From positions 4,290 to 68,289 of the forward strand of contig JBQTIM010000069.1 of assembly GCA_052388135.1 (NCBI GenBank): 64,000 nt of DNA, in the 5' to 3' direction. Source of the stretch: Elusimicrobiota bacterium (GTDB lineage: Bacteria; Elusimicrobiota; Elusimicrobia; FEN-1173). Shown piece after piece: positions 1 through 57,035 of the stretch (within the stretch, counting starts at the first letter, position 1; every line of letters begins with the position of its first letter). Position numbers and translations under genes: made by a program. A model generated the notes under the pieces. It did not search any database and had not been told where the DNA came from. It was given only the letters and a program-made list of their open reading frames with translations.

Positions 1-4
1 TAAA

Positions 5-1027
5 ATGGTGGTTGCTCTGCCCGGCAAGATTCTTGGCCTGCCTTATCAGCTCTCGCTTGCGAAGTCTTCCTTGGCCGGAGAAATTTTTACGCTCCTTTCT
101 GGAGATGTCTTTGATAGGCAGCCAGACACGGTTTTTGATTCGAGGTTCGGCAAACCTGCCGTGATAAGCATAAACGGCATGAAGAATAACGAAAGCCATG
201 GCATGGACATGCAGGAGTCCGTAATGGAGGCCTTCGGCGTTGAAAAAATGACGCGCATCGCGAATAACACCCACTGGTTGGGTCTGGGGGATATTCTCCA
301 AATGGTGGGTCACGAACTCTTCAGCGGGTTCGACAAGCCGGCCGTTAATGCGGCTGTGGCCATTCGGCAGGGCATCGAAGAAAAAGGCGAAGTCTACGTG
401 GTGGCCCACAGCCAAGGAACAGCCATATTCGCCATGGCCTTGCGGATGCTCACCAAGGAAGAGCGCTCCAAAATCCACTATTACGGCGCCGGGTCGGAAT
501 GGTTCATAGACGCCGAAAAAGAAGGTATAGCCAGCGCCCGGAATGTCTGGAACAGCCAGGACAAAATCCCGCGCATCAGCAACGATATAAATCCCATGGG
601 ATACATAAGAGGGCGAGGGCTCAGGGGTTGGGAAAAGGGAGGTGCCGGCGTCACCTCTTGGGCGCGTATCAACGAGGACAAAGACGGCAACAACCACCAT
701 TTCTTGACTTATTACCAAAAAGACATGCAGGCTTGGGCTGCTGGAAAAACTTCTGAGTTAGAGAGAAGCTATGCGACAAAAGACGGTAACCCGTTCTTAA
801 AGGCAGGGGCAAATGGCCAGATGGAAATGGTTCGCAATGGTTCTGTTGTCGCTGGGAACGCTTGGCATGGGACGGGTGGACAAAAATTTGAGCGAGGTGA
901 AGCCCTACTCGTTAGTCATGGGCAAGCGGTTCATCAGCAAAGTGGAAACCGCGATATTCCATTTTCAAGGGGAAAGAAAACTATTGATGGACCTGTTCGG
1001 AAGGTCGCCCCTTCCCGATCGGGATGA
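5..1027 (+). CDS. alpha/beta-hydrolase fold lipase/esterase-like protein with a GHSQG nucleophile-elbow motif ('VYVVAHSQGTAIF'). It may be 5'-truncated by the window edge, because the frame is open back to position 2. The segment has much lower GC than the rest of the window.
   Basis: 340-aa ORF in the track. The GxSxG serine-hydrolase motif is read directly from the translation. GC is ~50% against ~66% elsewhere. The last ~70 aa look less protein-like, and a second ORF overlaps from 813. Confidence 0.4.
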   Translation: MVVALPGKILGLPYQLSLAKSSLAGEIFTLLSGDVFDRQPDTVFDSRFGKPAVISINGMKNNESHGMDMQESVMEAFGVEKMTRIANNTHWLGLGDILQMVGHELFSGFDKPAVNAAVAIRQGIEEKGEVYVVAHSQGTAIFAMALRMLTKEERSKIHYYGAGSEWFIDAEKEGIASARNVWNSQDKIPRISNDINPMGYIRGRGLRGWEKGGAGVTSWARINEDKDGNNHHFLTYYQKDMQAWAAGKTSELERSYATKDGNPFLKAGANGQMEMVRNGSVVAGNAWHGTGGQKFERGEALLVSHGQAVHQQSGNRDIPFSRGKKTIDGPVRKVAPSRSG

Positions 1028-1295
1028 GGTGTCGACCTTCCCACATCGTTACGACGACATGATTATCCTGGGAGTGCTTCCGGCGGCCTCGAAATTCAAG
1101 ATAATCGGGATCAGGGAGCAAGGGTCGACCGCCAGCTCTTACACAAATCTATTGGTGGAAATCACGGAATCGAGCAATCCTCACTGGGTAGGCAAGGTGG
1201 TTTCGCCCTTAGGAATGACAACCTACGACCGGCAGACCAACCCGGTTCCCCAGTTCAAGCCCGAATACGTGGAGGAGCTGCCGGCGAAGCCGTAG
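813..1295 (+). CDS. small hypothetical protein with a hydrophobic N-terminus ('MARWKWFAMVLLSLGTLGMG'). The start is uncertain: in-frame Met codons at 918, 987 and 1059 would remove the 215-nt overlap with the upstream ORF.
   Basis: 160-aa ORF in the track with a signal-peptide-like N-terminus. It lies in the same low-GC region as the lipase-like ORF and directly upstream of the giant ORF. Confidence 0.25.
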   Translation: MARWKWFAMVLLSLGTLGMGRVDKNLSEVKPYSLVMGKRFISKVETAIFHFQGERKLLMDLFGRSPLPDRDEVSTFPHRYDDMIILGVLPAASKFKIIGIREQGSTASSYTNLLVEITESSNPHWVGKVVSPLGMTTYDRQTNPVPQFKPEYVEELPAKP

Positions 1296-1315
1296 CGCCT
1301 TCTTCGCGTGGGTTT

Positions 1316-4300
1316 TTGGCGGGAACCGCCAAGGTTTTTGGACGCATAGCGTCCGCCGTGGGGAATTTCTTTGGGCGTCTGTTTGGAAGGCCGGCGGGGG
1401 TTGAAGCGAAGCCGGAAACCATTCCGGCGGGCGTCTCTCCGCGGGAGTCGTTGTCGGCCCCGGCCCGAACTCTCACGGCCGAGGCTTCCCGGCCTGTTTA
1501 TGCCGACGGGCGGGTGTATGACCAGGGGCGGTTCTCTTGGGACGGGGAGGCTTGGCGGCTGGAAGGGCGGGGGCGCGCTCTGGAGAGCGGCTTCAACGGC
1601 ATTCGCGCGGAGGACGGCGGACGCCTGCCGGTCATCGTCGAATCGTCGCCGCAGGGAATTCAGGCCATGGGCATGGACTGGGAGGCCCTGGAAGGGCGCC
1701 GCCTTCTGGTTGAAAAACCCACCCGGCTTCCGGGCGCCGGAACCGTGTTCGCGGGTTCCTTCGACGTCAAGAACGGCGGGTTCCAATTTCACGAAGGCAG
1801 CCTTTACCGCTCCGAGGGCGAGCTTCACGCGCGCTTCGTCACGAAACAGAACGGCGAGCTGGCGCACTTCCCCGCCCGCCTGGAGGGCGATTCCTTCAGC
1901 CTCATCCTGACCGAAACCAAGCTGTCCACGGGGCAAACGGTCGCTTTCGCCGGTTCGCCGCTGACCGGCCGCATCCAGGATGGGCGCGCTTCCTTGAACG
2001 CCGGGCCGGCCGCCGCCCGCGTAAACCTTTCCGATAAGTTCGGCCGAAAGGCCCAGGGCGAGGTGCAGGTGTGGCTGGCGGAAGACGGGCTGAAAATGCG
2101 CGGGCTGGTCTCCGGCCAGACGTCCATCCCCGTTTCCCTGGTGTCCGGGTCTCCCCAAGCGGCGGATTCGGCGGCCGCGGGCGCCGCTCCGTCCGACCTT
2201 CCCGCCGGGCGCTACCGCGTCATGGCCGAGAAGGCGGGCCATTACTTCCTCGAAGGGGAAGTGGCCGTGGCCGAAACCGGCCTGGCGCCCTTCAGCGTCG
2301 ACACGCTGTTCCAGATGGCCCGAGGCGTGGGCTATCGCATGGGCGGCGTGGAGTTCCGGCAGGACGACGCCTTGCCGAATCAATTTTTCAAGCTTACGCG
2401 CCGGGTGGGAATCAGGGCGCCGGAAGGCGGCCGGATGAAAGACCTCTCCACCGGCCACGAAACGATTTTCGGCCCGGCCAACGAGCCCCTCTTTTTCATA
2501 AAACCCGATGAGAACGGAAAGAAGACCGTCCGCTCGGTGCAAGGCCAGGTCCTTCCGGCGGGCGTGCAGACCAACGCGCGCGGCGAAAAAGAGCTGGACG
2601 TCATGCTGGGCCCCGCCCGCCTGCAAGTCTTGCTGGAAACCCAAGACGACAAAACCTCCTACGTTTCCGATAGCCGCTGGCACGCCGCCGGCGACACGAC
2701 GGCCGCCCACGACGGAGTCAACGCCGCCGTCGGCGCCATGACCTTCGACGTGGGCCGCGCGCGCAAAGCCGCCGCGAGCCTCTGGAACCGCGCCGCCGAG
2801 GCCCGCGCCCAGGGCCTCTCCTGGAAAGAAACGGCCGACAGCCTCTGGCAAGAAACCAAAGCCGGCGCCCGGCAGATCTGGAACGAGGACATGGCCGGCC
2901 TTCGGCGCACTCAGCGGCTCGCGGGCCTCTATCTTATGCGGAACGGCATCGGCCTCTTCAAGGCCGGGGTCAACTTCTTCGGCACCAAAAGCATTCCCTA
3001 TTTCCAGCCCGTCCCGGTTAACCTCCTCAGGCATGTCCGCTTGAAGGGATCGTCTGAAAGCGTGGTGGACAAAGCCGAAACCTTCCTGGGCGCGGTGCTC
3101 CACGAGGCGGACAAAAAATACGTCGCGGCCAGGGACCAAGGAAACGAGGAAGTCGGCTTCTACTCCCTGGCCGAGCGCAGAGGCCAGTTCACGGCCCCCC
3201 AAATGCTGGCCCGCGGCGTCGGCCTCGGGGCGGAACAGTTGGGTCAGGGCTTTTTAACCTCTTTCTTCGGCGAAGCCCTTGAGGAATACCGCGGTATGAA
3301 TTTAGACGAGGCGGTTCTTAAAGAAATCAACATCGGTTGGGGCGGAATGAAGGAGTTGGCCAAGGGCGCCTTCACCAATTCCTACAAACAGGCCCCGACC
3401 GTGGTGGAAGCCACCAGGCAGGTCACCACATCCGTCGGCGCCATCGGCCTTATGGCCGTGGTCCCCGGTCGCGGTCTCGCGCGCGGATATCGCGCCGCCT
3501 CCCGCGTCACGGGAATCAGGCGCGTTGCCAGCGGGCTCAAAACCATGGCCGCGGACTCCGTACTCGGCGCGGTTGACATGGTCCTACCTCTCCCCATAGG
3601 CGTGGACGCCGGCGACATGGTCCGGGGCGTCGCGGGCGAATACCGGGCCGGCCGGGTCCGCGAAAGCCTGGGGTTGGGAACCAAAGACAACATCCAAGTG
3701 CTCACCCGGGACGGCCGCTACGTTTACCTGCGCGTCATGGGCGACGACGGCGCCTCCCTGCCGTCCTTGGCGCGCCTGGAGAACCTGGCCCAGCGAGCCG
3801 CCGAGAAGAATTTCGTGCTGGACTTGGAAATCGCCGGCGGCGAATCCGTGGCCCGGCAGCTTGAGGCGCGTCCGGAATACATGGCCGCCCTCAGCCGGGA
3901 AGGCCTGGCCCGCGTCGGCGATTACACCAACGGCCTGAAAAGCGGCGCCGTCAACCTGCGGTCCGCCGCCGTGGCGGAAGAGATGCGCTTCCGCTCTTTG
4001 AGCCTCAAAAAGGAAACTCAATTTCGCCTGGTCGATTCCGAATTGGCCGCCGGCCGGGCCAGAGAAGCGAAGTTAAAATCACTTGAATCCCAAGGGAATG
4101 TGAGGCAAACCGGTGCCTATCTGGCGGAAGCTAAAAGAAATCTTTCGGGGTGGAAGCGGTGGAAAGTCGGGCTCGCCGAGCTCCGGTGGCGTCGAGCCGA
4201 GCGAAGCCTACAGAATCTTGAGCGACGCGCGCAAAGAATTGAAGGAAGCCTATCAGATCACGCAAGAGACGGCGGCCATCCACAGGGAGCGGGAGTTGCG

Positions 4301-7300
4301 CCTCGCACAGGACTTGAAGGACCTGGAGGAGCAAGGTCAGCGCCAAGCCGAGCTGGCCAGGGACTTGAAGGCTTTGAGGGAACACTTCGAAGAGGAAGGG
4401 CGGAAAGCGCGGCAAGAGAAAGAACAAGCGCGGCAAGAGAAAGAACAAGCGCGGCAAGAGAAGCAGCAGGCGCAGCTAAAGATACAGCGTTACGAAGCCT
4501 TAGAGAAGAAATACAACAAGTGGAAACGCGAAATGGCGCGCTTGAAGGACAGCGATCCCGCTTACAAGACGAAATACGAATCGCTCATGAAGGAGAGACA
4601 AGCGCTCGAGGACGAGCTGAAAGCCTTGGAAGGGAAATAAAAGTTTACGACGGCCGGCTGTCCTGGCTCCAGGAGCGCGCGCGCTACCTCACCGAAGACC
4701 CCGCCGGCCGCCGCGTCTACGAAAGCGCCCTCACCCTCACGCCCGACTTCCGGGGCCTCTCCTCGGCCCGCGCCCGCCGGGGAGCCGGCGACGTTTCCCT
4801 GGACAATTTCCCGCTTTCGCCCGACGCTCCCCATCCTCATTCCGCGTTCCAAACGGTCTGGAAGGAATTCGGCCGCCTGGCCGCGGCCGAACGCGGCTCG
4901 TTCCTGATTCCCGAGCGCGGGATATTAAGCGCATTGAAGGATTTCCTGTCCTCTGAAAAAGGGCAAGTCCCGGGGGCTCCACCCCCGGCCCTGGGTGACT
5001 TTTCCTTTGCTCGTCCAAAGGAAAAGTCACCAAAAGGAAAGGACGCCCCCGGCGGCTTGCGCGGGCTGTTTTGGCGGCGGTCCGACACTCCGGCCCCTCA
5101 ACGGCCCATCGGGGCCATCGGGTCGGACCTCCCTCTCCGCCAAACCAACCCGCTCAGAGCGCCGCAGGGGGCCCCGGACGTCAACGACGCGTTGCCTGTG
5201 GATGGATTTTTTGCCCGGGCAATGCAAAGCCGCCATGCGGAAGCTTTCCTCAAGGGGGAAGGGAATTTTGCAGGGCGTAACGCTTACATTACAAAAGCAT
5301 CCGACTTGGATGGCGCAGAGACACCGATTCAAATCGCCGACCGGCTAAAGCTCACCAAGAAAGTGGGGGAGAGTATCGAGCTTTCCAGAGATGCCGACAC
5401 AGTCATAGTTTTCGGATATGATACGCCGACGCGCGCTCCGCCAGATTTGCGGGTCCCGACTCTCGAGGATGGAAGAAGTTATCCATTCACAACTGGAGGC
5501 GCCGCTACGGGCGGAGGGGCCTCTCAGTGGTTAGTAGGCAATGGATCGGTAATGGATTTGCAAGGAAAGGGATTTCGCGTTAAAGAAGTATATTCTGTCA
5601 ATGAGAGCGGGGTGCGATTAGCGTGGAAAACTGTTGCGAATCCAGACGGGACGTACTCGGTGACGGAGAAGGTTTTAACACCACCGAAGAATTCGAAAGC
5701 TACAATCAGCTCCATAAGCTTCTCGAAACGGTTCATCACATCCCTTTCGGAGCTTTTCTCCTCAAATGCAAAAACTGCCAACAGCTCTGGGTTGATGAAT
5801 CGGCTGGAAAGTCAGACAGTCCCGTCTACCGCAAGATCAGTCAGGACCAAGCAAGACTTAAGTTTCCAAACATTCCCCTGGGTTCATGAAGCCATTTCCG
5901 CAGTAAGCAATGCACAAGGCTCCGGGCTGGTTCCCTTTCGAAGCCCGCTTTCTTCGCTCAAATCCTTCGTGGCCCGGGTGTTCCGAAAGACAGCGGGGGA
6001 GGAAGGCGGCCCCGCGGTTCGCTCCACGGGCGGCGCGGACGGGTTAAGCCTTTATCTTCAGGGATTCTCCAAGGAGCTGGGCGAACACCGGGCGCGGTCC
6101 GGCGGTTCCTCCTCCTCTCAAAGCCTTTCCACCGTTCTCGAGGATTTCGGCCGGCGCTTGGAAGACCTCACCACATCCGAAAGCGCCCCCGCCCGCCCCC
6201 GCAGCGACCTTACGGACCCGAAAAGCCTGGAACTCTATTTAAAAGGTTTCGCCAGCGACATTGAAAAACTAACCAGCGACCAGCAGGGCAAGGCCATGAT
6301 CCCCGGCGACGGACCCATGGACGCGCTCAACGCCTACCTGGCGCGGGCTTTCCGGAAAACGGACATGGGCGAAGGCCCCGCCGCGCCGGGCCTTTCCGCA
6401 TCCTACCTCGGGCAAACGCAGTTTCCGCCTTCCGCCGCTCCCTCTTCGCGTTTCGACCGCTCGTCCAACGGATTCATGACCCACAAAGTCCCTCTGCAGG
6501 AGGGCAACCTGGAAGTGGTCTTGGTGCCGTCCAAATCCGCCTACTCGCCGCTCAGGTCCGACGCCGCGCCCGACGCCTGGGACGCGCCGCCCGTTCCCGG
6601 CCGCGACACCTCTTTCCGGCTGGAAGTGAAGCACGGCCCCGACGGCGACGAGATCGTCCTTTCCCGCCCCGGCAAAGGCCTGGCCAGCCTTGAAGACGCC
6701 GGTATCGGCCGGCCCGTGGGACCCGGCCGCATCCGCGTCCAATCCCGCCTGGAGGCCTTCGAGCTCATCCGAAAACAGGAAAGCCTGTCCAAAAACCAAC
6801 TGAACGGCCTCCTGGCCGACCTCAGCCGCGAGCTGGAAGCTTTGGCCAAGAATGAAGAAGGCAAGCTCGGCGCCGGACCGGACCGATCGAAACCCGGTTT
6901 GTTGAATAATGAGAGCGGCCGCTTATCCACGGACATGCTTTTGGCGCCGGTCTTGGCTCCCTGGAAGGCCGCGAAAAAGATTTTTTGGAAGAGCGGAGAG
7001 GCCCTGGAGAGATGGCTTCCGGAAACATGGCGCGCGGCGGCGGCGGAACGGCGCGTCGGAGCCCAGCTGGACGCCTTGGTGGATTTCCGGCTGGATCTGG
7101 AAAAAGGAGGGATGGGTTTTGAGGAAATCGTATCGCGCTATCATGAAATTGCTGGGAGCCGACTCGCTTTGGACGGCGGAGCGGATGGCGGAGCTCTATC
7201 GGGACGACTACGAGGCGGGTCTTCGCCGGTGGAGGCAACTGGGCCGCGTGGCGGAAGAATATCACGTTGGCTGGCTCAACTATCGGAAGCGATTGGAGCG

Positions 7301-8419
7301 CGAAGACGAAAAGGACCGGGAGAAAATCAGGGTGTTCTGGGAGAAGGCCCGGGAGTTGCAGAAAGGATTTCAGGATATAGAACGGAGGGGCGCGCTGAAA
7401 GAGCAGCAGGGCGAGCTCTTAATGAAGCGATACCAAGAGTGGCAGTCCAATACCAACGCGTTGTCCAAGAGCGATCCCGATTACGAGGCCAAAAAGCGGA
7501 TGTTGGAGGAAGAGCTCCGAGCGATCGAGCGGGAAATCACCCGGCTGGAGCAGGAGGACAAGCGGCCGCGGATGCCGCCGCCCCCGTCTACATAGGGAAA
7601 CTTTCTTCCTGGCTGGAAAAACAGCGGTCCGGCGCCGCTCTCGCCCCCGGCTTGGCGGCGGAACTGCGGGCCATGAAAGGCCAAGGCCGCCACGCGGAAG
7701 TTTTCCAGCGCGTCATGGCCGACGTGGTGGAGGACACCGGCTTAAAAATCATGATCCCCGAGCCCGACGCCCGCGGCTTGGCCAACCTGGCCGCCGGCGC
7801 CGCGGCCAAACCCGAATGGATGAAGGCCAAGTCCGACCCGCAAACGCGCTACGTCCTCTGGGATGACGCCAAGGCCCGGCATGGCGAAGCCTATTTGAAA
7901 GAGCACGGCAGCCGGCCCGTGGAGGTGGAAGTGGAGGGCGGACGCCGGATCCAGGCCGCCTCCGATGCCTGGGGCCGCCCCTTGTCCAAGGACGTGGATC
8001 CCACCATGGTGGAAGGCGCGGGCGTCGTGTTCCGCGATCCCGCGAAGATGGGCTATTCCACCCGCATCGCCAACGAAGCCCTGCAATGGGCCAACGCCAA
8101 ACTGAAAGAGCTCGGCTACGGCGAGGTCTTTCCCCACGGCCCCGCCAATCAATTTTCCAGAGCCCAGTCGCTGGCATACCCTCAGATCGCCTACGAGTTG
8201 ACGCCCGAAGGCGCTCTCCGCCGCTACCGCATTTCCGACGAGCGGCAAGCCCAGGCTTTCTTCCACAAAGCCCGCCAGCCCGGCAGCCCCGCCTGGAATT
8301 GGCCCTCGGACCTGTCCGTCCACGCCCGCGAGGCCCTTCCGTCTATCCCCGCGGATTTCGAGAAGGCCGGCCGGCACACAGGCCGCACGTATCCTCCGCG
8401 GGCCGACGCAGGGAATTAG
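1316..8419 (+). CDS. giant uninterrupted ORF (2367 aa) encoding hypothetical protein(s) with no recognisable enzymatic motif. It is probably a composite: two internal stretches (about 4190–4640 and 7143–7595) code better in the +1 frame, the 4972–5177 repeat element sits in-frame, and 5200–5950 is low-GC.
   Basis: There is no stop codon in this frame for 7.1 kb. At the observed base composition about 2% of random codons would be stops, so a chance open frame is excluded. Third-position GC is high over most of the ORF (checked by eye at 1316–4100, 4640–4960 and 7600–8419). It drops to ~40–45% across 4190–4640 and 7150–7595, where the +1 frame shows the G1-A2-S3 coding periodicity. Confidence 0.5.
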   Translation: MAGTAKVFGRIASAVGNFFGRLFGRPAGVEAKPETIPAGVSPRESLSAPARTLTAEASRPVYADGRVYDQGRFSWDGEAWRLEGRGRALESGFNGIRAEDGGRLPVIVESSPQGIQAMGMDWEALEGRRLLVEKPTRLPGAGTVFAGSFDVKNGGFQFHEGSLYRSEGELHARFVTKQNGELAHFPARLEGDSFSLILTETKLSTGQTVAFAGSPLTGRIQDGRASLNAGPAAARVNLSDKFGRKAQGEVQVWLAEDGLKMRGLVSGQTSIPVSLVSGSPQAADSAAAGAAPSDLPAGRYRVMAEKAGHYFLEGEVAVAETGLAPFSVDTLFQMARGVGYRMGGVEFRQDDALPNQFFKLTRRVGIRAPEGGRMKDLSTGHETIFGPANEPLFFIKPDENGKKTVRSVQGQVLPAGVQTNARGEKELDVMLGPARLQVLLETQDDKTSYVSDSRWHAAGDTTAAHDGVNAAVGAMTFDVGRARKAAASLWNRAAEARAQGLSWKETADSLWQETKAGARQIWNEDMAGLRRTQRLAGLYLMRNGIGLFKAGVNFFGTKSIPYFQPVPVNLLRHVRLKGSSESVVDKAETFLGAVLHEADKKYVAARDQGNEEVGFYSLAERRGQFTAPQMLARGVGLGAEQLGQGFLTSFFGEALEEYRGMNLDEAVLKEINIGWGGMKELAKGAFTNSYKQAPTVVEATRQVTTSVGAIGLMAVVPGRGLARGYRAASRVTGIRRVASGLKTMAADSVLGAVDMVLPLPIGVDAGDMVRGVAGEYRAGRVRESLGLGTKDNIQVLTRDGRYVYLRVMGDDGASLPSLARLENLAQRAAEKNFVLDLEIAGGESVARQLEARPEYMAALSREGLARVGDYTNGLKSGAVNLRSAAVAEEMRFRSLSLKKETQFRLVDSELAAGRAREAKLKSLESQGNVRQTGAYLAEAKRNLSGWKRWKVGLAELRWRRAERSLQNLERRAQRIEGSLSDHARDGGHPQGAGVAPRTGLEGPGGARSAPSRAGQGLEGFEGTLRRGRAESAARERTSAARERTSAAREAAGAAKDTALRSLREEIQQVETRNGALEGQRSRLQDEIRIAHEGETSARGRAESLGREIKVYDGRLSWLQERARYLTEDPAGRRVYESALTLTPDFRGLSSARARRGAGDVSLDNFPLSPDAPHPHSAFQTVWKEFGRLAAAERGSFLIPERGILSALKDFLSSEKGQVPGAPPPALGDFSFARPKEKSPKGKDAPGGLRGLFWRRSDTPAPQRPIGAIGSDLPLRQTNPLRAPQGAPDVNDALPVDGFFARAMQSRHAEAFLKGEGNFAGRNAYITKASDLDGAETPIQIADRLKLTKKVGESIELSRDADTVIVFGYDTPTRAPPDLRVPTLEDGRSYPFTTGGAATGGGASQWLVGNGSVMDLQGKGFRVKEVYSVNESGVRLAWKTVANPDGTYSVTEKVLTPPKNSKATISSISFSKRFITSLSELFSSNAKTANSSGLMNRLESQTVPSTARSVRTKQDLSFQTFPWVHEAISAVSNAQGSGLVPFRSPLSSLKSFVARVFRKTAGEEGGPAVRSTGGADGLSLYLQGFSKELGEHRARSGGSSSSQSLSTVLEDFGRRLEDLTTSESAPARPRSDLTDPKSLELYLKGFASDIEKLTSDQQGKAMIPGDGPMDALNAYLARAFRKTDMGEGPAAPGLSASYLGQTQFPPSAAPSSRFDRSSNGFMTHKVPLQEGNLEVVLVPSKSAYSPLRSDAAPDAWDAPPVPGRDTSFRLEVKHGPDGDEIVLSRPGKGLASLEDAGIGRPVGPGRIRVQSRLEAFELIRKQESLSKNQLNGLLADLSRELEALAKNEEGKLGAGPDRSKPGLLNNESGRLSTDMLLAPVLAPWKAAKKIFWKSGEALERWLPETWRAAAAERRVGAQLDALVDFRLDLEKGGMGFEEIVSRYHEIAGSRLALDGGADGGALSGRLRGGSSPVEATGPRGGRISRWLAQLSEAIGARRRKGPGENQGVLGEGPGVAERISGYRTEGRAERAAGRALNEAIPRVAVQYQRVVQERSRLRGQKADVGGRAPSDRAGNHPAGAGGQAAADAAAPVYIGKLSSWLEKQRSGAALAPGLAAELRAMKGQGRHAEVFQRVMADVVEDTGLKIMIPEPDARGLANLAAGAAAKPEWMKAKSDPQTRYVLWDDAKARHGEAYLKEHGSRPVEVEVEGGRRIQAASDAWGRPLSKDVDPTMVEGAGVVFRDPAKMGYSTRIANEALQWANAKLKELGYGEVFPHGPANQFSRAQSLAYPQIAYELTPEGALRRYRISDERQAQAFFHKARQPGSPAWNWPSDLSVHAREALPSIPADFEKAGRHTGRTYPPRADAGN
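4113..4640 (+). CDS. nested +1-frame ORF encoding a K/E/Q/R-rich coiled-coil protein with an ARQEKEQ x3 tandem repeat and the C-terminal motif 'DSDPAYKTKYESLMKERQALEDELKALEGK'. It is either the C-terminal domain of an upstream protein reached by a +1 shift near ~4190, or an independent small gene (GTG start with GAGG 9 nt upstream).
   Basis: 175-aa ORF in the track. GC3 is ~72% in this frame against ~45% for the giant frame over the same bases. Codon position 1 is G-rich and position 2 is A-rich. It is paralogous to the C-terminus of the ORF at 7143–7595 (SDPxY…K(K/E)R..LE(E/D)EL(R/K)A(I/L)E). Confidence 0.45.
   Translation: MPIWRKLKEIFRGGSGGKSGSPSSGGVEPSEAYRILSDARKELKEAYQITQETAAIHRERELRLAQDLKDLEEQGQRQAELARDLKALREHFEEEGRKARQEKEQARQEKEQARQEKQQAQLKIQRYEALEKKYNKWKREMARLKDSDPAYKTKYESLMKERQALEDELKALEGK
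4407..4469 (+). repeat. 3 x 21-bp tandem repeat (gcgcggcaagagaaagaacaa), encoding (ARQEKEQ)3 in the +1-frame coiled-coil ORF
   Basis: Read directly; the third copy is degenerate. Confidence 0.7.
4972..5177. repeat. structured ~207-nt repeat element, copy 1, lying in-frame inside the giant ORF
   Basis: About 80% identical to 29924–30130. It has a 13-bp hairpin with conserved loop GCUYGUCC and two nested long-range helices, and each helix shows compensatory substitutions between the two copies. Confidence 0.6.
7143..7595 (+). CDS. nested +1-frame ORF encoding a coiled-coil protein ('…SKSDPDYEAKKRMLEEELRAIEREITRLEQEDKRPRMPPPPST'), a paralogue of the 4113–4640 product.
   Basis: Internal ATG at 7143 within track ORF 6909..7595. 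GC3 is ~78% in this frame, while the giant frame translates the same bases into G/R/A-rich low-complexity sequence. The ORF upstream of 7143 in this frame is R/W-rich junk. Confidence 0.45.
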   Translation: MKLLGADSLWTAERMAELYRDDYEAGLRRWRQLGRVAEEYHVGWLNYRKRLEREDEKDREKIRVFWEKARELQKGFQDIERRGALKEQQGELLMKRYQEWQSNTNALSKSDPDYEAKKRMLEEELRAIEREITRLEQEDKRPRMPPPPST

Positions 8420-8459
8420 CCGAAGGCGTCCATCCCAAGCCCGCAACACTCCGAAGTCT

Positions 8460-10256
8460 ATGCGAACTCAGGTTCCGCCCCACAGCCCACCCAATGATCT
8501 GAATCCGCCGCCCCCCCGAATGGAAGCCGCGCCCGCCGATGCCGCGTTCACGGGCCGTACTTTGGCCGCTTTGGGCGCGGCCGGCGTTGTGTACACCCTG
8601 GCGCCCTGGACTTTGGCGGGGGCGTCCTTCCACTGGGGCGGCCTGGCGGTCTCGTTGCGTTCGCTGGGGAACGCCACGGCGGCCTTGCTCATCCTGGCAG
8701 GGGCGTCTCTTCTCGCCTCCGGCCGCCTTCGCCGCGCCGTCCTGAACGTTGCGGCGATTATAGACCGCCTGCCGTCCAAGAATCAAAACGCGCTCACGGC
8801 GGCGGCTTGCCTGGCTTATGCCGCGGCGGCCATCAGCCACAAGCTTTACGCTCAGCACACTTTGGCGACCCACGCCCTGGACCTGGGCTTTTTTTCCAAC
8901 ATTTGCTGGAACACCGCTTTCTCCGATGGCGCGCCGGAGGCCTGGTTCTACTCTTCCTTCATCGAGCGAAACTTCATGGGCGTCCACGTCAATTGGATAT
9001 TGTGGCCCCTGTCGTTCTTCTACCGATGGGGTGGAGACGCCCGGGTGCTTCTGGCCGCCCAAGTGCTGTTCACGGCGGCCGCGTTCCCGTTCCTGCTGGC
9101 CGCGGTGCGCCGCTTGACAGGCAGTTATTCCGCCGGCTTCCTGGCCTGCGTGATGATGGCGTGCTCCCCCTATATAGGACACACGGTCGCCAACGATTTC
9201 CATCCCGATCAATGGCAGTTGCCTTGCTTGATGGCCGCCCTTTGGGCCATGCTGCGAGGGTCGCGAAAGATGGTTCTCCTGTTCGGCGCCTTGGCTCTTC
9301 TGGCCAAGGAAGACGTCTCCTTCGTGCTGGCCGGGTTTGGAATATTTCTGGCCCTAAAGCCGGGCTGGCGAGGCACGGGAGCGGCCCTCTTCGCCCTGGC
9401 CGCGGCCGCCTTCGCCTTCCACACGCAGGTTTTCATTCCCCGCTTTCTGGAAGAGGGCGTCGAATCCCTTTTGTTCGCCCGATATCCCCTTTTGGGAGAC
9501 AGCTATTCCGAGATGGTTCGCAATATTTATTCAGCGCCGGAGGTTTATTGGGAAGCCGTGATATACGATCCGCTCAAATTCTGGCGGTGGGCCTCCATGT
9601 GGCTGCCCACGGCCGGCCTGGGGTTTCTCAGTCCGTCTTTCCTGATTCCGCCGGCCGTAAGCGCTGCCCCGCATCTGATGTCCCAGGCCGGCGCGCAACT
9701 GGAATTCAGGGACATCTACTCCTTGCCCAGCCAACCGTTCGTGTTCATGGGCGCCGCCTTCGGCCTGCGAAAGCTGATGCGGCGAAACGCCCTGGCCGGC
9801 CGGGAAGCGCTTTTGGCGGGAGTCTGTTTGATCGTCGCCGGCATAGGCGTGGTAAAATCCCCCCGGTTCTACCGCCCAAGGCTCGCAAGCCGGGCGGAAG
9901 CGTTCCATAGGATGAAGGCTCTGGTCCCTCCCGACGCCTCGGTGGCCGCCCAGCAGAACTTGGTCCCCCATTTTGACGCTCGCCGTTACGTGCAAATTTT
10001 CCCCATCGGCCTGCTTCTGGATGACATGACGAGCCGCTACAGGACGAACCCCGCCTATATCGCCGCGGACAGGGCGGAAAATTCCCTGCCGTTCAGCGCG
10101 GAGCAAAGGGACGCCGCCATCCGCTCCGCCGAGACCGACCCCCATTACGAAAAAATCTTCGATGAAAAAGACTTCGTCCTCCTCCGCCGCCGCGTTTCGG
10201 AAGAGCCCAACTGGACTGCGGTGCCTTTGAAGAGACATCCGACGGCAATTAAATGA
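8460..10256 (+). CDS. polytopic integral membrane protein, possibly DUF2079-like or a GT-C-fold glycosyltransferase-like protein
   Basis: 598-aa ORF with more than 10 hydrophobic helical segments throughout. The family assignment comes only from general resemblance of size and topology, without a diagnostic motif. Confidence 0.35.
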   Translation: MRTQVPPHSPPNDLNPPPPRMEAAPADAAFTGRTLAALGAAGVVYTLAPWTLAGASFHWGGLAVSLRSLGNATAALLILAGASLLASGRLRRAVLNVAAIIDRLPSKNQNALTAAACLAYAAAAISHKLYAQHTLATHALDLGFFSNICWNTAFSDGAPEAWFYSSFIERNFMGVHVNWILWPLSFFYRWGGDARVLLAAQVLFTAAAFPFLLAAVRRLTGSYSAGFLACVMMACSPYIGHTVANDFHPDQWQLPCLMAALWAMLRGSRKMVLLFGALALLAKEDVSFVLAGFGIFLALKPGWRGTGAALFALAAAAFAFHTQVFIPRFLEEGVESLLFARYPLLGDSYSEMVRNIYSAPEVYWEAVIYDPLKFWRWASMWLPTAGLGFLSPSFLIPPAVSAAPHLMSQAGAQLEFRDIYSLPSQPFVFMGAAFGLRKLMRRNALAGREALLAGVCLIVAGIGVVKSPRFYRPRLASRAEAFHRMKALVPPDASVAAQQNLVPHFDARRYVQIFPIGLLLDDMTSRYRTNPAYIAADRAENSLPFSAEQRDAAIRSAETDPHYEKIFDEKDFVLLRRRVSEEPNWTAVPLKRHPTAIK

Positions 10257-10369
10257 TAAGGCCGCTTTGCGCCTTATGAAGTATGATCTGACGACCCGGC
10301 TGTAATGGGCGGACTTCTTTTTAAGCCCAGGCGACAGCCGAAAATTCGACCGTGCATGAGGGATGCGCC

Positions 10370-11515
10370 ATGAAAAAATTCAAGCGAGTGATGGTCTTTC
10401 TAAGCTTAATCGCTCTTGCCTCAGGCCCATTGTTCGCCGGCGTGCCCAACCGTATCGTTTATCAGGGGCGGCTGACGAAATCGGGCGTGAGCGTAAGCGG
10501 GGCGCACACGTTCCGGGCCCGGCTCATTTCTGCCGGCGGCGCGGAAATATGGAACAGCGGGGATCTGGCGCTCACCCTGCCGCCCTCCGGAGACTTCACT
10601 CTGGTCCTCTCCCCGTCCGGCGTCAATTGGATCAACGATGACCCCAAACTCGAAATCTCCGTGGACGGCGACATCCTCAATCCCTCCGACACCTTCGCCG
10701 CCAGCCCCTACGCCATCGTCGCCTCGACTGCCCAATACGCCTTTGCCGCGGCCAACGCCGCCAGCGCGGATGCCGTGGCGAACGGAAGCGTCAACGACAA
10801 TTCCATAGCGGCGGGCGCCGGCATCGCCCTCTCCAAGCTGTCGCCGGGCGCGTTCCCGGCGGGAACCTATTCTTACGCCGGATCCAACGTGGCCTTCGGC
10901 GGCCCCGGCGTTTGGGATGCCGCCGGGAATCTGGGCATCGGGACGTCGTCCCCGGAAAAAAAGCTGGATGTGCGGGGCGAGGCGCGGAGCACCGTGGGTG
11001 GGGTGAATTTCCATATGGTTCCGGTGGGGACGGTCATCGCCTATGCGGGGGCCACGCCCCCCGCCGGCTGGTTGTTTTGCAACGGCCAGGCCGTGAGCCG
11101 AACCACATACGCGTCTCTATTCGGTGCCATCGGGACAATCTATGGGGCCGGCGACGGGTCCACAACATTCAATGTGCCGGATCTGCGGGGGCGCGTGGCC
11201 GTGGGGAAGGACGATATGGGCGGGGGAGCCGCCGGCCGCATGACCGCTTATATCAACGGTTCAAGCCTAGGCGCGAGCGGGGGAAGCCAATCCCATGCTT
11301 TGTCTGTTAGTCAGCTGCCCAGCGGTCCCGGAGGCCTGTATGGATTCGTCCGCAGATCTCTGCCGGGTGAGAATGTCACGGTATCGGCTGCCGATACTGT
11401 CGGTTCTGGCACCCAAATTGATATCGTTTCTACGAACTTAATAGGGGGAGACCAGGCCCACACCAACACCCAGCCCGGCCTTATTTTGAACTACATCATT
11501 TGCGCCGGGCAGTAG
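10370..11515 (+). CDS. secreted protein with a C-terminal phage tail-collar (T4 gp12-like / MdpB-type) domain
   Basis: Signal peptide 'MKKFKRVMVFLSLIALASGPLFA'. The C-terminal region 'IAYAGATPPAGWLFCNGQAVSRTTYASLFGAIGTIYGAGDGSTTFNVPDLRGRVAVG…QSHALSVSQLP…GGDQAHTNTQPGLILNYIICA' matches the collar-domain consensus as I recall it. A GAGGGA RBS lies 8 nt upstream of the ATG. Confidence 0.6.
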   Translation: MKKFKRVMVFLSLIALASGPLFAGVPNRIVYQGRLTKSGVSVSGAHTFRARLISAGGAEIWNSGDLALTLPPSGDFTLVLSPSGVNWINDDPKLEISVDGDILNPSDTFAASPYAIVASTAQYAFAAANAASADAVANGSVNDNSIAAGAGIALSKLSPGAFPAGTYSYAGSNVAFGGPGVWDAAGNLGIGTSSPEKKLDVRGEARSTVGGVNFHMVPVGTVIAYAGATPPAGWLFCNGQAVSRTTYASLFGAIGTIYGAGDGSTTFNVPDLRGRVAVGKDDMGGGAAGRMTAYINGSSLGASGGSQSHALSVSQLPSGPGGLYGFVRRSLPGENVTVSAADTVGSGTQIDIVSTNLIGGDQAHTNTQPGLILNYIICAGQ

Positions 11516-29822: not shown

Positions 29823-29923
29823 TTTAATTTAGATGTTGTGGCAGCCCCGCCAGGCCGCCGGGAATCCCCGACGGCCGTTTCGGTGTTTTGTGCGGGTTTA
29901 ATTGAGGGCAACGACCACATCGA

Positions 29924-30130
29924 AGGGGCTCCACCCCTTCACCCGGCCATACTTTCTTTTTGCTTGTCCAAAAAGAAAGTATGGAGAAAGAAAAAGGACA
30001 CCCCGGTGGCCTGCGCGCGCCGTTTTCGCGGCGGCCCGACATTCCGGCCCCTCAACAGCCCATCGGGGCCATCAGGTCGGGCCTCCCGCTTCCGCGAAAA
30101 CGGCGTGCTCGAACCGCCACAGGGGCCCGA
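29924..30130. repeat. structured ~207-nt repeat element, copy 2, intergenic between rlmD and an AT-rich islet
   Basis: See copy 1. The P1 stem reads auacuuucuuuuu/aaaaagaaaguau here versus ugacuuuuccuuug/caaaggaaaaguca in copy 1. P2 reads cgccguuuucgcgg/ccgcgaaaacggcg versus ggcuguuuuggcgg/ccgccaaaacagcc. P3 reads ggcccgac/gucgggcc versus gguccgac/gucggacc. Confidence 0.6.
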
Positions 30131-30169: not shown

Positions 30170-30553
30170 ATGAAAACTTTAAAAATAATCCTATTCCTTT
30201 TCATTCTCTTCGCAAGCGCATTCCTTGTTTTAGGATATGCCCTTACCCATGTGTTCATTGAAAAATATCCTTTATACATTTTTAGTGCTGTAGGCGCCTT
30301 TATGTCTGCTTTGGCTACTTCTTGTTTGGCTGTAATCGGATGGTTTGTAAGCAAAATTATAGGACGCTTTAATCGAGGATATGATGCTTTAGTTAAAAGC
30401 CAACCATTACAAAACGAATATCAATTAATGATTTCTGATAACGCGGCACTATTGGGAAAGTATGGCTGGGTCCAGGGGTGGAGCCCCTGGAAAACAAAAC
30501 TGAATTCTAAAACTTACTCCACCAGCTCTGGATACCGGCTTTCGCCGGTATGA
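30170..30553 (+). CDS. small hypothetical membrane protein (two TM helices) in an AT-rich (~38% GC) islet
   Basis: 127-aa ORF. Low-GC codon usage unlike the rest of the window. Its 3' end overlaps one arm of the dispersed hairpin element. Confidence 0.4.
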   Translation: MKTLKIILFLFILFASAFLVLGYALTHVFIEKYPLYIFSAVGAFMSALATSCLAVIGWFVSKIIGRFNRGYDALVKSQPLQNEYQLMISDNAALLGKYGWVQGWSPWKTKLNSKTYSTSSGYRLSPV

Positions 30554-50578: not shown

Positions 50579-50721
50579 GCGCCTTCTCCGTTCCAAATCC
50601 GCGTTCCCACCCGTCTGAAAATCGCCCGCCTACGTCCCGGTCCCCCGCTCTTGAGGCGGGCACGCGCTTCCATGAGAAAAGTGTTGAAGAGACGCCCCAA
50701 TTCGCATAAGCTTATAGCCGC

Positions 50722-53625
50722 ATGAAAAAGAGTTGGGTGATGGACACGTTGGTGGGAATTTCTTTGAGCCTGGCCGTGGCGGCCGCGGCGTTCTTCCGCT
50801 GGCCCGTGACGGAGGCCTTGGAGAGCCGGCTCTACGACCTGCGCCTCCAGCATTCCCCCAAAGCCCCCCTGTCGGATCAAATCCTCTTCGTGGCCATAGA
50901 CGACGCCAGCCTGGAATCCGCGGGCCGCTGGCCCTGGCCGCGGAGCTACATCGGCCAGATGGTCCAGCAGATCGGCGCCGGGCGGCCCAAGGTCATCGGC
51001 GTCAATATTTTCTTTACCGAAGCGGACGAGAACCAGGGCTTGGAGCGCGTCCGCAACCTCCGCCAGCAGTACGTCGAGGCCGCCGGCGACCCGGCCATCG
51101 CCACCCTGCAGGCGCTCGTGAAAAAGGACAGGAAACTGCGGTGGGCGGAGACCGTCCTGGATCCTCTCTTGGACATGGACATCCTGTTCGCCGAGGCCGA
51201 GGACAGCCTGGACAACGACCGCGCCCTGGCCCTGGCCCTGCAGGAAACCCCCCGCGTGGTCCTGCCCATGACGTTCACGAGTCTGGAGGCTCCTCTGGCC
51301 GGGGAGCCGCCCGAGCTGCTGGACCGCATGAAAACCCGCGCCCTGGCGGAAGGCGAGCCGACGCCCCGGTCGGCGGTTCCGGAGGGTTACGCTCCCCTCC
51401 TTCCCCTGGAAAAATTTGCCGGCGCCGCGGCCGGCCTCGGCCACAGCAACATCTTCAAGGACTGGGACGGCTCCGTGCGGCGCGAGGCGCCGGTGGTCCG
51501 CTACCAGGGCCGCCTGTTTCCCTCACTGGCTTTGGAGATGGCCCGCGTGGCCCGCGGCCTGGCGCCGGAGGACGAGAAGGTGTCGCCCGGGCGCGACGTC
51601 CTTCTGGGCGAAACGCGCATTCCTCTCGACGGAGAAAGCCGCGCGCTCATCAATTTCCCGTCGTCGTTTTCCGACCTCAAGACGGTGTCCGCCGTGGACG
51701 TCCTGGCGGAAAAAATCCCGCCCGAAACCTTCAAGGACAAGCTGGTGCTGCTCGGCCCCATGGCCTCGGGCCTGGGCACGCTTTTCGTGACGCCGGTGGA
51801 AGCCAACTACCCCGACAGCGGCGTCATCGTCACCTCTCTGCAGAACATTTTGGGCGGCTCGTTCCTCCAGAGGCCGGCGTGGGCTTTCCAGGCGGAGATG
51901 GGCGCCTTGCTGGCGGTGGCCTTGTTCGTGTCGTTCCTCCTGCCGCACCTGCGGGCCCGCATGGGCGCCCTTTGCGCTCTCTTGCTCCTCATCGCGCTGG
52001 GCGCCGCCGGCGCCTATCTTTTCGTGGCCCAAAAAATCTGGGTGAAGATTTTCTACGGCATGGCGCTTTTGGTTCTGGGCTACGGCCTCATCACCCTGCG
52101 GCGCTTCTTCTTCACGGAGCGGCGCAAGGAGCTCGTGGAGGCGGAGAGCATCGAGACCAACAAGATGCTGGGCCTCTCTTTCCAAGGCCAGGGCATGCTC
52201 GACATGGCCTTCGATAAGTTCCGCAAGTGCCCCGTGGACGACGCCATGAAGGACCTGCTCTACAACCTCGCCCTGGATTTCGAGCGCAAGCGCCAGTTCA
52301 ACAAAGCCGCCGTGGTCTACGAGCACATCGGCAGGACCGACCCGGGCTACAAAGACATCAAGGAACGCCAGAAGGGCGCCAAAACGGCGGGCGACACCAT
52401 GATCGCCGGTCCGGGCCTGGGAGGCAAGCGCGAGGGCACTCTGGTCATGGAGGGTTCCACCGTCAAGCCAACGCTGGGGCGCTACGAAATCGAAAAAGAG
52501 CTGGGCCGCGGCGCCATGGGCGTCGTCTACCTGGGCCGCGACCCCAAGATCAACCGCCAGGTGGCCATCAAGACGCTGCGCTTCAACGACGAGGTGGAGG
52601 AATCCGCCGTCAAGATGGTGCGCGAGCGTTTTTTCCGCGAGGCCGAGTCCGCCGGCACTTTGAACCACCCCAACATCATCCGCATCTTCGACGCCGGCGA
52701 AGACAACGAGGTTTCCTACATCGCCATGGAGCTTCTGGCCGGCGAGGATTTGAAAAAATACACGGACAAGGCCAGCCTCCTGCCGCCCCCGCAGGTGATG
52801 GAGTACGCGGCCTTGATCGCCGACGCGCTGGACTACGCCCACGCCAACGGCGTCATTCACCGCGACATCAAGCCCGCCAACATCATGCGCCTGAAGGACG
52901 GCACCCTGCGCGTCACGGACTTCGGCATCGCCCGCATCGCGGCGTCCTCCAAGACCCAGACCGGCACGGTCATGGGCACGCCCAGCTACATGTCGCCCGA
53001 GCAGATCGCCGGCAAAAAGGTGGACGGCCGCGCGGACCTGTTCTCCCTCGGCGTCATGCTCTACGAGATGCTGACGGGGGAAAAGCCTTTCGACGGGGAC
53101 AGCATCGCCACGCTCCTTTTCCGCATCTCCAACGAGGTCCACCCCGACCCGCGCTTGAAGGCCTCCGACCGCGTGTCCGTCGCCGCTCGGGCCGTCATCG
53201 ACAAGGCCCTGGCCAAGGACCCGGTCCTGCGCTATCAGCGCGGAAGCGAAATGGCGGCCGACCTGCGGGAGGCTTTGAAGACCCCCGGCGCTGCGCCGGC
53301 CAACGCCGCGCGGCCGCCGGTGGAGGAGGAGGTTCCCGTTCCTCCGGCCGACCAGGCCGTCGCGCCCGCGGCCGAGCCGCCCGCGGCCGCGGCCGAGCCG
53401 CCGCCCGATGTTTCTTTCCCCGACATGGGCGCCGGCATCGCCGCCGCCCTGGGAGGACTGACGACGGCGCCGGAGCCCCCGGCCGATCCCTACCCGCCCC
53501 CGAACGCCGCCGAACCCAACGGCCATGGGGCGGAAACCGGAAACGAAAAACCCCTTTCTTCGGAAACCGTCCGCCTGCCGCCCGGCGAAGTCCAATTTCC
53601 CGACGACACCTTGAAAATGCCATGA
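50722..53625 (+). CDS. membrane sensor Ser/Thr protein kinase: N-terminal extracytoplasmic CHASE2-like domain, TM helices, and C-terminal Hanks-type kinase domain with a Pro/Ala-rich tail
   Basis: Kinase motifs 'LGRGAMGVVYLG', 'VAIK', 'HRDIKPANI', 'DFG' and 'GTPSYMSPE'. The N-terminal ~400 aa with flanking TM segments is CHASE2-like. Confidence 0.8.
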   Translation: MKKSWVMDTLVGISLSLAVAAAAFFRWPVTEALESRLYDLRLQHSPKAPLSDQILFVAIDDASLESAGRWPWPRSYIGQMVQQIGAGRPKVIGVNIFFTEADENQGLERVRNLRQQYVEAAGDPAIATLQALVKKDRKLRWAETVLDPLLDMDILFAEAEDSLDNDRALALALQETPRVVLPMTFTSLEAPLAGEPPELLDRMKTRALAEGEPTPRSAVPEGYAPLLPLEKFAGAAAGLGHSNIFKDWDGSVRREAPVVRYQGRLFPSLALEMARVARGLAPEDEKVSPGRDVLLGETRIPLDGESRALINFPSSFSDLKTVSAVDVLAEKIPPETFKDKLVLLGPMASGLGTLFVTPVEANYPDSGVIVTSLQNILGGSFLQRPAWAFQAEMGALLAVALFVSFLLPHLRARMGALCALLLLIALGAAGAYLFVAQKIWVKIFYGMALLVLGYGLITLRRFFFTERRKELVEAESIETNKMLGLSFQGQGMLDMAFDKFRKCPVDDAMKDLLYNLALDFERKRQFNKAAVVYEHIGRTDPGYKDIKERQKGAKTAGDTMIAGPGLGGKREGTLVMEGSTVKPTLGRYEIEKELGRGAMGVVYLGRDPKINRQVAIKTLRFNDEVEESAVKMVRERFFREAESAGTLNHPNIIRIFDAGEDNEVSYIAMELLAGEDLKKYTDKASLLPPPQVMEYAALIADALDYAHANGVIHRDIKPANIMRLKDGTLRVTDFGIARIAASSKTQTGTVMGTPSYMSPEQIAGKKVDGRADLFSLGVMLYEMLTGEKPFDGDSIATLLFRISNEVHPDPRLKASDRVSVAARAVIDKALAKDPVLRYQRGSEMAADLREALKTPGAAPANAARPPVEEEVPVPPADQAVAPAAEPPAAAAEPPPDVSFPDMGAGIAAALGGLTTAPEPPADPYPPPNAAEPNGHGAETGNEKPLSSETVRLPPGEVQFPDDTLKMP

Positions 53626-53707
53626 CCCGCGCGGGGGGGGGCAGGAGCGTTGAGGGCGAGAAAAATCAGGCGCGCGGTCCGCGCGCTCTCCGCCGGAGGT
53701 TTCCGTC

Positions 53708-57032: not shown

Positions 57033-57035
57033 CTC

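Follow-up and report, generated by a model that had tools for sequence, protein, structure and literature searches.

A stretch of 64,000 nucleotides (nt) from an Elusimicrobiota bacterium (GenBank assembly GCA_052388135.1, contig JBQTIM010000069.1, positions 4,290 to 68,289 of the forward strand), called the window here, contains an uninterrupted open reading frame (ORF) at positions 1316–8419 that resembles a multi-module polymorphic toxin. Within this ORF the coding frame alternates. Two stretches encode coiled-coil proteins (coil1 and coil2) in another frame of the same strand, and a further small ORF for a cysteine-rich protein is nested in the third frame. The alternation is reproduced at one junction in an independent assembly, the frame of the coils is under purifying selection, stop codons are avoided in the long frame across the coils, and the cysteine-rich ORF is present in three loci. 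Judged from the sequence, there is an even chance that the coils and the cysteine-rich protein are small genes with starts of their own, overprinted on the segments that link the modules of a toxin polyprotein.

Frames are named by (start − 1) modulo 3, so that the long ORF is in f1, the coil ORFs are in f2 (+1 relative to f1) and the cysteine-rich ORF is in f0 (−1). The long ORF and its parts are as follows.

1316–8419, plus strand: long ORF, f1, TTG start, 2367 codons; a single hypothetical protein in the NCBI annotation.
1316–4112, plus strand: module A, f1, ~930 amino acids, strong codon usage, no in-frame stop at its end.
4113–4640, plus strand: coil1, f2 (+1), 175 amino acids, GTG start, stop TAA at 4638–4640; supported by codon usage, protein P0037 and contig L003.
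4640–4966, plus strand: segment B1, f1, begins (I)KVYDGRLSWLQER, overlaps the coil1 stop, no canonical start.
4967–5180, plus strand: three-hairpin palindromic repeat element, within the ORF, f1 without stops.
5168–5839, plus strand: Ntox10-type toxin domain, f1, lower GC, atypical codon usage.
5623–5889, plus strand: cysteine-rich nested ORF, f0 (−1), 88 amino acids, GTG start, pattern CC...CxxCxQLW...YxKI...ARxxFP.
5921–7118, plus strand: segment B3, f1 codon usage, no in-frame stop at its end.
7119–7595, plus strand: coil2, f2 (+1), stop TAG at 7593–7595; supported by codon usage, as a paralogue of coil1 and as a homologue of protein P0038.
7586–8419, plus strand: module C, f1, ~275 amino acids, begins VYIGKLSSWLEKQR, overlaps the coil2 stop, no canonical start.

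The original prediction, made from the letters alone, had described an uninterrupted frame of 2367 codons in which the coding signature moves twice to the +1 frame. Both parts of this description are borne out. The ORF runs from TTG 1316 to the sole f1 stop, TGA 8417–8419, and f1 is free of stops already from 1028. In a log-odds plot of codon usage, with 25 ordinary genes of the window as the training set, the best frame is f1 over 1450–4060, f2 over 4150–4640 and f1 over 4630–4900. The signal is weak or ambiguous over 4900–5900, after which f1 is best over 5920–7140, f2 over 7100–7595 and f1 over 7570–8400. Thus f2, not f1, is the best frame over both coil stretches in the frame plot that had been proposed as a check. 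The GC content at third codon positions (GC3), in windows of 150 nt, is 0.28–0.46 for f1 and 0.64–0.82 for f2 over 4151–4600 and 7121–7570. Taking GC3 and the codon plot together, f1 carries coding signal in all segments of the long ORF except the two coil stretches, and the signature lies in the +1 frame at ~4113–4640 and 7119–7595. As had also been claimed, f1 contains no ATG, GTG or TTG around 4640 or 7596. The division of the locus into three tandem units was too simple, since its middle part includes the palindromic repeat, the Ntox10-type domain and the cysteine-rich ORF as well.

At 1314–1343, directly 3' of an immunity-like gene, there is a hairpin that resembles a terminator and has a trailing T-run (TTTTGGCGGGAACCGCCAAGG TTTTT). 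Because it overlaps TTG 1316, the true start of module A is uncertain. A promoter and terminator scan of positions 1–9000 gave hits at background level. In a database search with the whole long ORF, the sole match was its own NCBI protein from the metagenome-assembled genome (MAG) that is the source of the 70-kb contig. Exact-product look-ups of the giant protein, its neighbors and the coil ORFs returned no record, and Pfam and NCBIfam scans of every segment gave only coiled-coil noise.

Each coil ORF encodes some 160–175 amino acids and is provided with its own putative translation signals. For coil1, GAGG lies 6–7 nt 5' of GTG 4113, and f2 is closed just upstream by stops at 4074 and 4101. 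For coil2, translation may start at TTG 7119 or at ATG 7143, and the sequence AAGGAGG(G) at 7104–7111 lies about 7–8 nt 5' of TTG 7119. The two +1-frame ORFs had been predicted to be paralogous coiled coils, and the comparison agrees: they are weak paralogues (34% identity over 76 amino acids, E 2e-5), and the SDPxY...ExxL motif is found in both. A search with the coil profile retrieved two further proteins, P0037 (196 amino acids, from the Joint Genome Institute, JGI) and P0038 (167 amino acids, 30% identity). P0037 is a strain variant of coil1 that is called as a separate protein with identical start and end. P0038 is likewise called as a stand-alone protein, with AGGAGGG 6 nt 5' of its ATG, and it has in common with the coils the N-terminal amphipathic motif, the ARQEKEQ repeats and the LEGK end. 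This amphipathic motif also heads module A and protein P0023. A pattern scan of metagenome contigs with the coil profile found nothing, nor did a search of viral contigs. The coils therefore appear to be genes in their own right, with their own Shine-Dalgarno-like sequence, start and stop; the Shine-Dalgarno-like sites carry moderate weight here, because AGGAGG-type sequences are common inside genes of the window.

The independent JGI contig L003 (1012 nt), which encodes P0037, allows the substitutions to be assigned to frames. In the unique parts of coil1, the differences from L003 are 8 synonymous and 2 non-synonymous in f2, compared with 1 and 9 in f1. The coil1 stop is kept, as TAA is replaced by TAG. 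The differences between the ARQEKEQ repeats of coil1 and P0038 are, in our own sequence comparison, all synonymous in f2. Since the changes in coil1 are mostly synonymous in f2, the coil frame encodes a protein under purifying selection. By this measure f2 is the selected protein frame, and the f1 reading across the coil is without amino acid constraint.

The length of the coiled coil varies between strains, with both reading frames preserved. Coil1 contains a perfect 21-nt (heptad) tandem repeat of 2.8 copies at 4405–4462, and L003 has 6.6 copies of a different 21-nt unit at 711–848. It was also considered that the coils might be immunity proteins specific to the domains upstream of them. This was set aside, as the coils are paralogous and module A and segment B3 are unrelated. 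The earlier proposal that each coil is the C-terminal module of its upstream domain is not supported.

A locus assembled from a metagenome could owe its alternating frames to an artefact, either through paired indels in the MAG contig or through a chimeric join in a strain-variable toxin island. The locus is indeed strain-variable, as seen in the different repeat array of L003 and in a 1-nt indel between two related contigs (L004 and L005), and a second assembly is available for one of the four window junctions only. However, L003 differs from window positions 3693–4641 by 75 substitutions and one repeat-number difference of 63 nt, a multiple of three, and therefore comes from another strain in another sample. 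In this related strain the junction between A and coil1 is identical, without an indel, and the frame of A is open through the whole coil. The 3' part of module A shows 16 synonymous and 9 non-synonymous differences in f1, compared with 1/24 and 5/20 in the other frames. Paired compensating indels, one of the explanations originally offered, are thus ruled out for the A/coil1 junction and the coil1 stop. They are unlikely overall, since the same layout is present in the distant L004 and L005; the alternation is repeated in the paralogous unit of the window and in a homologue of 30% identity at 51% GC. The junction windows are without long homopolymers, and the housekeeping genes in the other ~55 kb of the window have full-length Pfam matches and no frame breaks. 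We regard an artefact as very improbable.

The length of the open frame was a weaker argument than had been supposed. The statement that a stop-free frame of this length cannot happen by chance was overstated: in ordinary genes, 59% of 160-codon windows have no stop in the −1 frame, and stop-free non-coding frames in the window reach 1246 codons. The 25 ordinary genes contain 0.41 stops per 100 codons in the −1 frame and 1.88 in the +1 frame. The −1 frames are stop-poor because of a strong codon-context bias against a T-ending codon followed by a purine-starting codon: stop-forming pairs occur at 0.28 and the other pairs at 0.18 times expectation, and T-ending codons followed by a pyrimidine-starting codon are found at 2.1 times expectation. 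A naive codon-shuffle test for the open f1 (P 0.003–0.004) was therefore rejected, as ordinary genes are already 3.5-fold depleted in −1 stops.

In its place we used a context test in which stop-forming T|purine pairs are compared with the other T|purine pairs. In coil1 and coil2 together no stop-forming pair is observed against 9.3 expected, and the pairs that do not form stops are at expectation (9 observed). Expressed as a fraction of T|purine contexts, stop-forming pairs account for 0 of 9 in the coils and 45 of 93 in ordinary genes (Fisher P = 0.004), and a binomial calculation with the coils' own codon make-up gives P of about 2e-4. Of the ordinary 160-codon windows with comparable expectation, just 13% are without a −1 stop. 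This avoidance of stops is the hallmark of a frame under pressure to remain open. For f1 as the host frame of the coils, selection concerns openness only, and no amino acid constraint was detected.

The same arrangement is found on the two contigs that carry P0038, L004 and L005, which have 51% GC. There the upstream coding frame (X) runs without a stop, the coil is in X+1, and the downstream coding frame is again X and lacks ATG, GTG or TTG at its beginning. Codon-position GC backs the alternation X, X+1, X. In L005, frame X contains 0 stops in 306 codons, and the other two frames contain 6 and 16. In all three independent units (A/coil1/B, B3/coil2/C and L004/L005) there is thus no upstream stop and no downstream start, and the flanking frames are in phase. 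The homology of the segment that follows the coil in L005 to B1 or C was not convincing.

The geometry of these units might suggest programmed recoding, either with a +1 shift into each coil and a −1 shift out of it or with only a −1 shift at the coil end that would give coil–toxin fusions. In 3/3 units the module after the coil lies at −1, overlaps the coil stop and lacks a start, as in an OrfA/OrfAB pair. The amphipathic motif is shared, and B and C, if fused to the coils, would acquire an N terminus like that of A. In CCGCCCCCG, where coil2 ends, slippage of tRNA-Pro in the P site on C_CCG would yield ...PPPP-VYIGKLSSWL. There is no slippery heptamer common to the coil ends, which read GGG AAA TAA, CCC CCG TCT ACA TAG and GGG AAA TCA ... 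TAG, and the C-terminal tails of the three coils differ in length. No slippery motif was found at the f1-to-f2 junctions (4104–4115 and ~7100–7160), where a +1 entry is in any case unnecessary, since each coil has its own Shine-Dalgarno-like site and start and f2 is closed just 5' of coil1. Recoding also gives no reason for a stop-free f1 inside the coils. Paired +1/−1 recoding, which had been among the original candidates, thus has no conserved slippery site, and recoding in either form seems to us decidedly unlikely. An ATA that overlaps both coil stops (as ATAA and ATAG) was also considered as a start and rejected: the pattern has a chance probability of ~6%, and the conserved VY of unit C precedes the ATA.

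To learn what the long ORF is, the f1 translation of 4640–8239 was searched in full with HMMER against 1.84 billion representatives. The region 5168–5839 is the only part with homologues (36 matches, best 2.9e-22). Among these, P0002, P0011 and P0019 match PF15520 (Ntox10), and in some the domain forms the C terminus of RHS proteins (two on RHS). A direct Pfam scan of the whole 2367-amino acid ORF gave nothing at E <= 0.1, and because of this the Ntox10 assignment is indirect, by way of these intermediates. Over 5180–5900, f1 contains 0 stops compared with 5–15 in the other frames. P0002, P0003 and P0023 carry an Ntox10 domain mid-protein followed by a lipase domain in a single protein of ~1000 amino acids; multi-toxin single ORFs therefore exist in the lineage.

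The cysteine-rich ORF overlaps the end of the Ntox10 domain and an S/T-rich linker. Homologues (blastp 8e-13, 38–44% identity) are nested at the equal place and in the equal relative frame at two loci of another Elusimicrobia MAG (L002, 1471–1776; L001, 8793–9047), and the L002 copy is called as a gene in ENA. In the relatives P0002, P0003 and P0023, the cysteine-rich nested ORF likewise follows Ntox10. Over the linker, conservation is 34–37% in the nested frame vs 19–27% in the main frame, and the codon plot favors f0 over 5590–5800. The protein matched no family in Pfam. The immunity families reported for Ntox10 are Imm27 and Imm53 (PMC3482391); neither was seen, and the cysteine-rich ORF belongs to neither. 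We propose it as a candidate immunity or accessory partner of Ntox10.

Directly upstream of the long ORF are two further genes of the toxin type.

5–1027, plus strand: lipase-type toxin ORF, f1, with AHSQGT...GAGSEW; its left end is probably cut by the window.
813–1295, plus strand: immunity-like protein, f2, with an N-terminal hydrophobic signal-like segment.

The lipase ORF has 33–45% identity with the lipase domains at the C termini of P0002, P0003 and P0023, and tblastn finds it in L001 (2e-45) and L002 (6e-41). In Pfam it has only weak matches to DUF900, DUF676 and Tle3. Homologues of the 813–1295 protein lie directly 3' of the lipase effectors in L002 (34% over 160 amino acids, 5e-27) and L001 (3e-11), and it is therefore an immunity-type partner of the lipase. 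In the codon plot, f2 scores best over 1000–1300. By homology the natural end of the lipase is at ~808. There is no f1 stop until 1027, so the ORF runs 215 nt into the next gene; it overruns the homologue ends by ~73 codons (797–1027) in the −1 frame of 813–1295, and the homologues in L001 and L002 stop normally.

The other modules of the long ORF have good coding signal and no recognizable relatives. Module A begins with an N-terminal amphipathic W/F-motif and a VYDQGRFSW motif, followed by a large domain without known homologues; none were found by a word search (which missed module A itself) or in JGI metagenome contigs. For B1, f1 scores +0.9 to +1.1 from 4630, and its start motif is common to module C and the N-terminal part of A. 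B3 contains repeated amphipathic helix motifs, including PWKAAKKIFWKSGE at ~6960. For module C, f1 scores up to +1.5. The codon usage of C and B1 is equal in quality to that of housekeeping genes. B1 and B3 have no homologues among the 1.84 billion representatives, and module C has none there, in the PDB or in viral contigs. PDB sequence searches with the Ntox10 segment likewise gave nothing significant, and an AlphaFold2 model of module C from the single sequence was uninformative (predicted local distance difference test score, pLDDT, of 37.8). No candidate immunity partner was found for modules A or C, and no known trafficking, RHS or secretion domain or system was identified in Pfam and NCBIfam scans. 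An amphipathic W-motif and VY.G+LSW are recurrent motifs. Taken together, the domain content makes the long ORF like a multi-module polymorphic toxin protein. The earlier guess of a polymorphic toxin locus gains support, on grounds other than those first given, from the Ntox10-type domain, the lipase with its immunity gene and the relatives that carry both toxin domains. The phage tail-collar gene that had been placed in the left block is actually 2 kb downstream, at 10352–11515, and no link to the locus was found.

Two observations were made on the related loci. L004 and L005 are 99% identical and then diverge abruptly after ...SQTLGRE (from ~870 and 1105 onward, respectively), and the C-terminal continuation of L004, YGSYGGPGWSG...HD, looks like a phospholipase A2. 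The divergence resembles a typical polymorphic-toxin swap point. At 1558–7233 of L001, an Ntox10–lipase effector lies beside a DnaG-type primase gene and three consecutive tyrosine-recombinase genes, a layout that suggests a toxin locus on or beside a mobile element.

A, coil1, B, coil2 and C might alternatively be ordinary neighboring genes, now or until recently, and the fused ORF would be functionless. B and C would then be start-less orphan toxin cassettes kept for recombination, as in Rhs/CDI (contact-dependent inhibition) loci, and the continuity of the frame would have come about by 1-nt deletions in A-runs together with a stop-poor −1 frame, or would be bypassed by −1 slips on A_AAA followed by termination. 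Consistent with this, B and C lack starts and begin with the VY.G+LSW motif that is also present near the N terminus of A, as orphan cassettes would. Where the lipase, A and B3 would naturally end, the −1 frame has stops just after runs of four or five A (TAA 787, TGA 4084 and TGA 7120); the last of these, together with the coil2 start, makes a canonical TTGA overlap. The sites with A-run and stop are at 778–789, 4075–4086 and 7101–7122. A like case was seen at L001 6351–6370, in a tandem array of three integrase genes: an A5 run precedes an ATGA overlap that is out of phase with the second gene, which continues for another 137 codons. The joint chance is ~0.01. Past 1-nt deletions or low-level −1 slippage are possible causes of the pattern. 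Because the −1 stops sit at natural ends after A-runs, the fused ORF could be a mutational by-product of once-canonical stop/start overlaps. The frequency of open −1 frames in ordinary genes and the overrun of the lipase by 73 codons, which its homologues lack, point in the same direction.

Against separate genes stands the number of coincidences that would be needed. A missing stop, an in-phase relation (1 in 3) and an open −1 frame must come together three times, at A/B, at B/C and in L005. Within coil1 and coil2 it is specifically the stop-forming contexts that f1 lacks, the codon usage of C and B1 is of housekeeping grade, and a ribosome that starts at A meets no stop before 8419. Orphan cassettes follow a terminated gene, and here the upstream frames of A, B3 and L004/L005 run on in phase. 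On balance we consider this explanation unlikely.

The overprinting of small genes on the linkers of a toxin polyprotein, which had been one of the candidates from the beginning, is favored by the Shine-Dalgarno-like sequence, start and stop that each coil has of its own, by the stand-alone homologues, by selection in the coil frame and by the openness of f1. Under this reading, ribosomes from module A would read f1 through to 8419 and produce a polyprotein of A, B (pre-toxin, Ntox10 and B3) and C. The linkers would be unconstrained f1 readings of the nested genes, rich in R, G, A and E (for example GAGVAPRTGLEGPGGAR), and internal Shine-Dalgarno and start sites would give rise to coil1, coil2 and the cysteine-rich protein. 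The cysteine-rich protein may act as the immunity partner of Ntox10, and the coil proteins may be accessory partners (chaperone, adaptor or immunity) of the neighboring modules. Extended to a general scheme, this would make the loci multi-toxin polyproteins in which each module's accessory or immunity gene is overprinted on the next linker, with the open frame and the coding frame both translated and the arrangement conserved over 30–34% identity and 51–62% GC. We put this wider proposal forward tentatively, as somewhat less probable than not.

Several points weigh against the overprinting reading. The test for stop avoidance was post hoc and includes 9 contexts only, and in P0038 the stop pattern is inseparable from the general context bias. 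Openness of the main frame over the cysteine-rich ORF is not significant (shuffle P 0.25–0.8). Read in f1, the coils have very poor codon usage (GC3 ~0.3) and give a protein sequence that is not conserved. AGGAGG-type sequences inside genes number 37 on the plus strand of the window. The independent assembly covers the coil1 stop and just the one window junction, and between L004 and L005 a 1-nt indel (TTTT[G]AAG) breaks frame X of L004 ~110 nt 3' of the coil. The structured repeat at 4967–5180 is intergenic elsewhere and yet lies inside the ORF here. To these is added the placement of −1 stops at the natural module ends, with the by-product origin of the fused ORF that it allows.

The structured repeat is placed exactly between B1 and the low-GC Ntox10 cassette. 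A second copy is intergenic, at ~29922–30130. The two have 76% identity over 205 nt, and the indels between them are not multiples of three. Both copies fold alike (z = −5.9 and −8.6), and a 16-bp stem is perfectly paired in both despite differing sequence. By our own count from the alignment, the changes between the copies are 2 synonymous and 8 non-synonymous in f1. No match was found in Rfam at the gathering threshold for the whole window. Both copies precede a low-GC segment, and in another genome a translated copy forms the spurious N terminus of an unrelated PMT_2 protein (P0033). The second copy and most of a low-GC ORF at 30170–30553, a predicted membrane protein, are flanked by 33-nt inverted repeats with 91% complementarity (29924–29956 and 30456–30488). 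The region has a tRNA methyltransferase-like gene on one side and mfd on the other and is possibly a small mobile cassette. Elsewhere in the window, at 50710–58793, there is a cluster of genes for a CHASE2 Ser/Thr kinase, a PP2C, an FHA protein and two FecR-domain proteins.

Embedded same-strand gene pairs are represented by Rz/Rz1 of phage lambda and by comS inside srfAB of Bacillus subtilis. The locus resembles these in that a small gene that has its own start is fully enclosed, in a shifted frame, by a larger one of the same strand, and both frames are open. In contrast to them, the host here is a multi-module toxin ORF, the nested genes (88–175 amino acids) are of two unrelated kinds and sit on inter-module linkers, the host frame is apparently constrained only to openness, and the arrangement is known from sequence. 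To our knowledge, same-strand overlapping genes this large are rare and disputed in bacteria.

The short ORF that ends just inside a longer start-less −1 frame recalls the −1 programmed frameshifting of IS3 OrfA/OrfAB, dnaX and phage G/GT; unlike in those systems, there is no conserved slippery heptamer, and the downstream frame is already open and coding long before the short ORF begins. The orphan toxin/immunity cassettes found 3' of rhs and cdiA come after a terminated gene. B and C are similar to these cassettes in lacking starts and in beginning with a short motif of the first module, but here the upstream frame is unterminated and in phase with the next module in 3/3 cases. The in-frame insertion of a palindromic element into genes is familiar from Rickettsia, and the structured repeat is comparable in being palindromic, in occurring also between genes and in lying inside an unbroken ORF. 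It differs in that there are two copies only, of unrelated sequence, and in its position exactly at the border of the low-GC toxin cassette.

In polymorphic toxin systems, some toxins carry more than one toxin domain (Zhang et al. 2012, PMC3482391). Features in common with these systems are the Ntox10-type domain, which elsewhere is C-terminal in RHS proteins, the lipase with a conserved immunity gene, the divergence of L004 and L005 after a conserved stretch, and the long multi-toxin proteins. Unlike in those systems, there is no recognized trafficking, RHS or secretion domain and no Imm27 or Imm53, and the candidate partner genes are inside the toxin ORF in another frame and not after its stop. 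Our literature search, whose coverage was incomplete, found no precedent for partner genes nested in polymorphic-toxin ORFs.

An open −1 frame is the rule in GC-rich genomes, and a long ORF by itself proves little. The NCBI annotation and gene callers give only the 2367-amino acid protein and miss the nested genes. If the overprinting reading is true, toxin ORFs can conceal toxin and accessory or immunity genes, a point of relevance when polymorphic toxins and orphan immunity genes are surveyed. It would be a clean natural case of two-frame maintenance, in which protein sequence is kept in one frame and only openness in the other, and it would provide a route by which neighboring toxin cassettes may fuse into polyproteins. 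If the wider proposal holds as well, dual coding in bacterial toxin loci would be systematic and selected, and toxin genes could fuse and still keep their partner genes.

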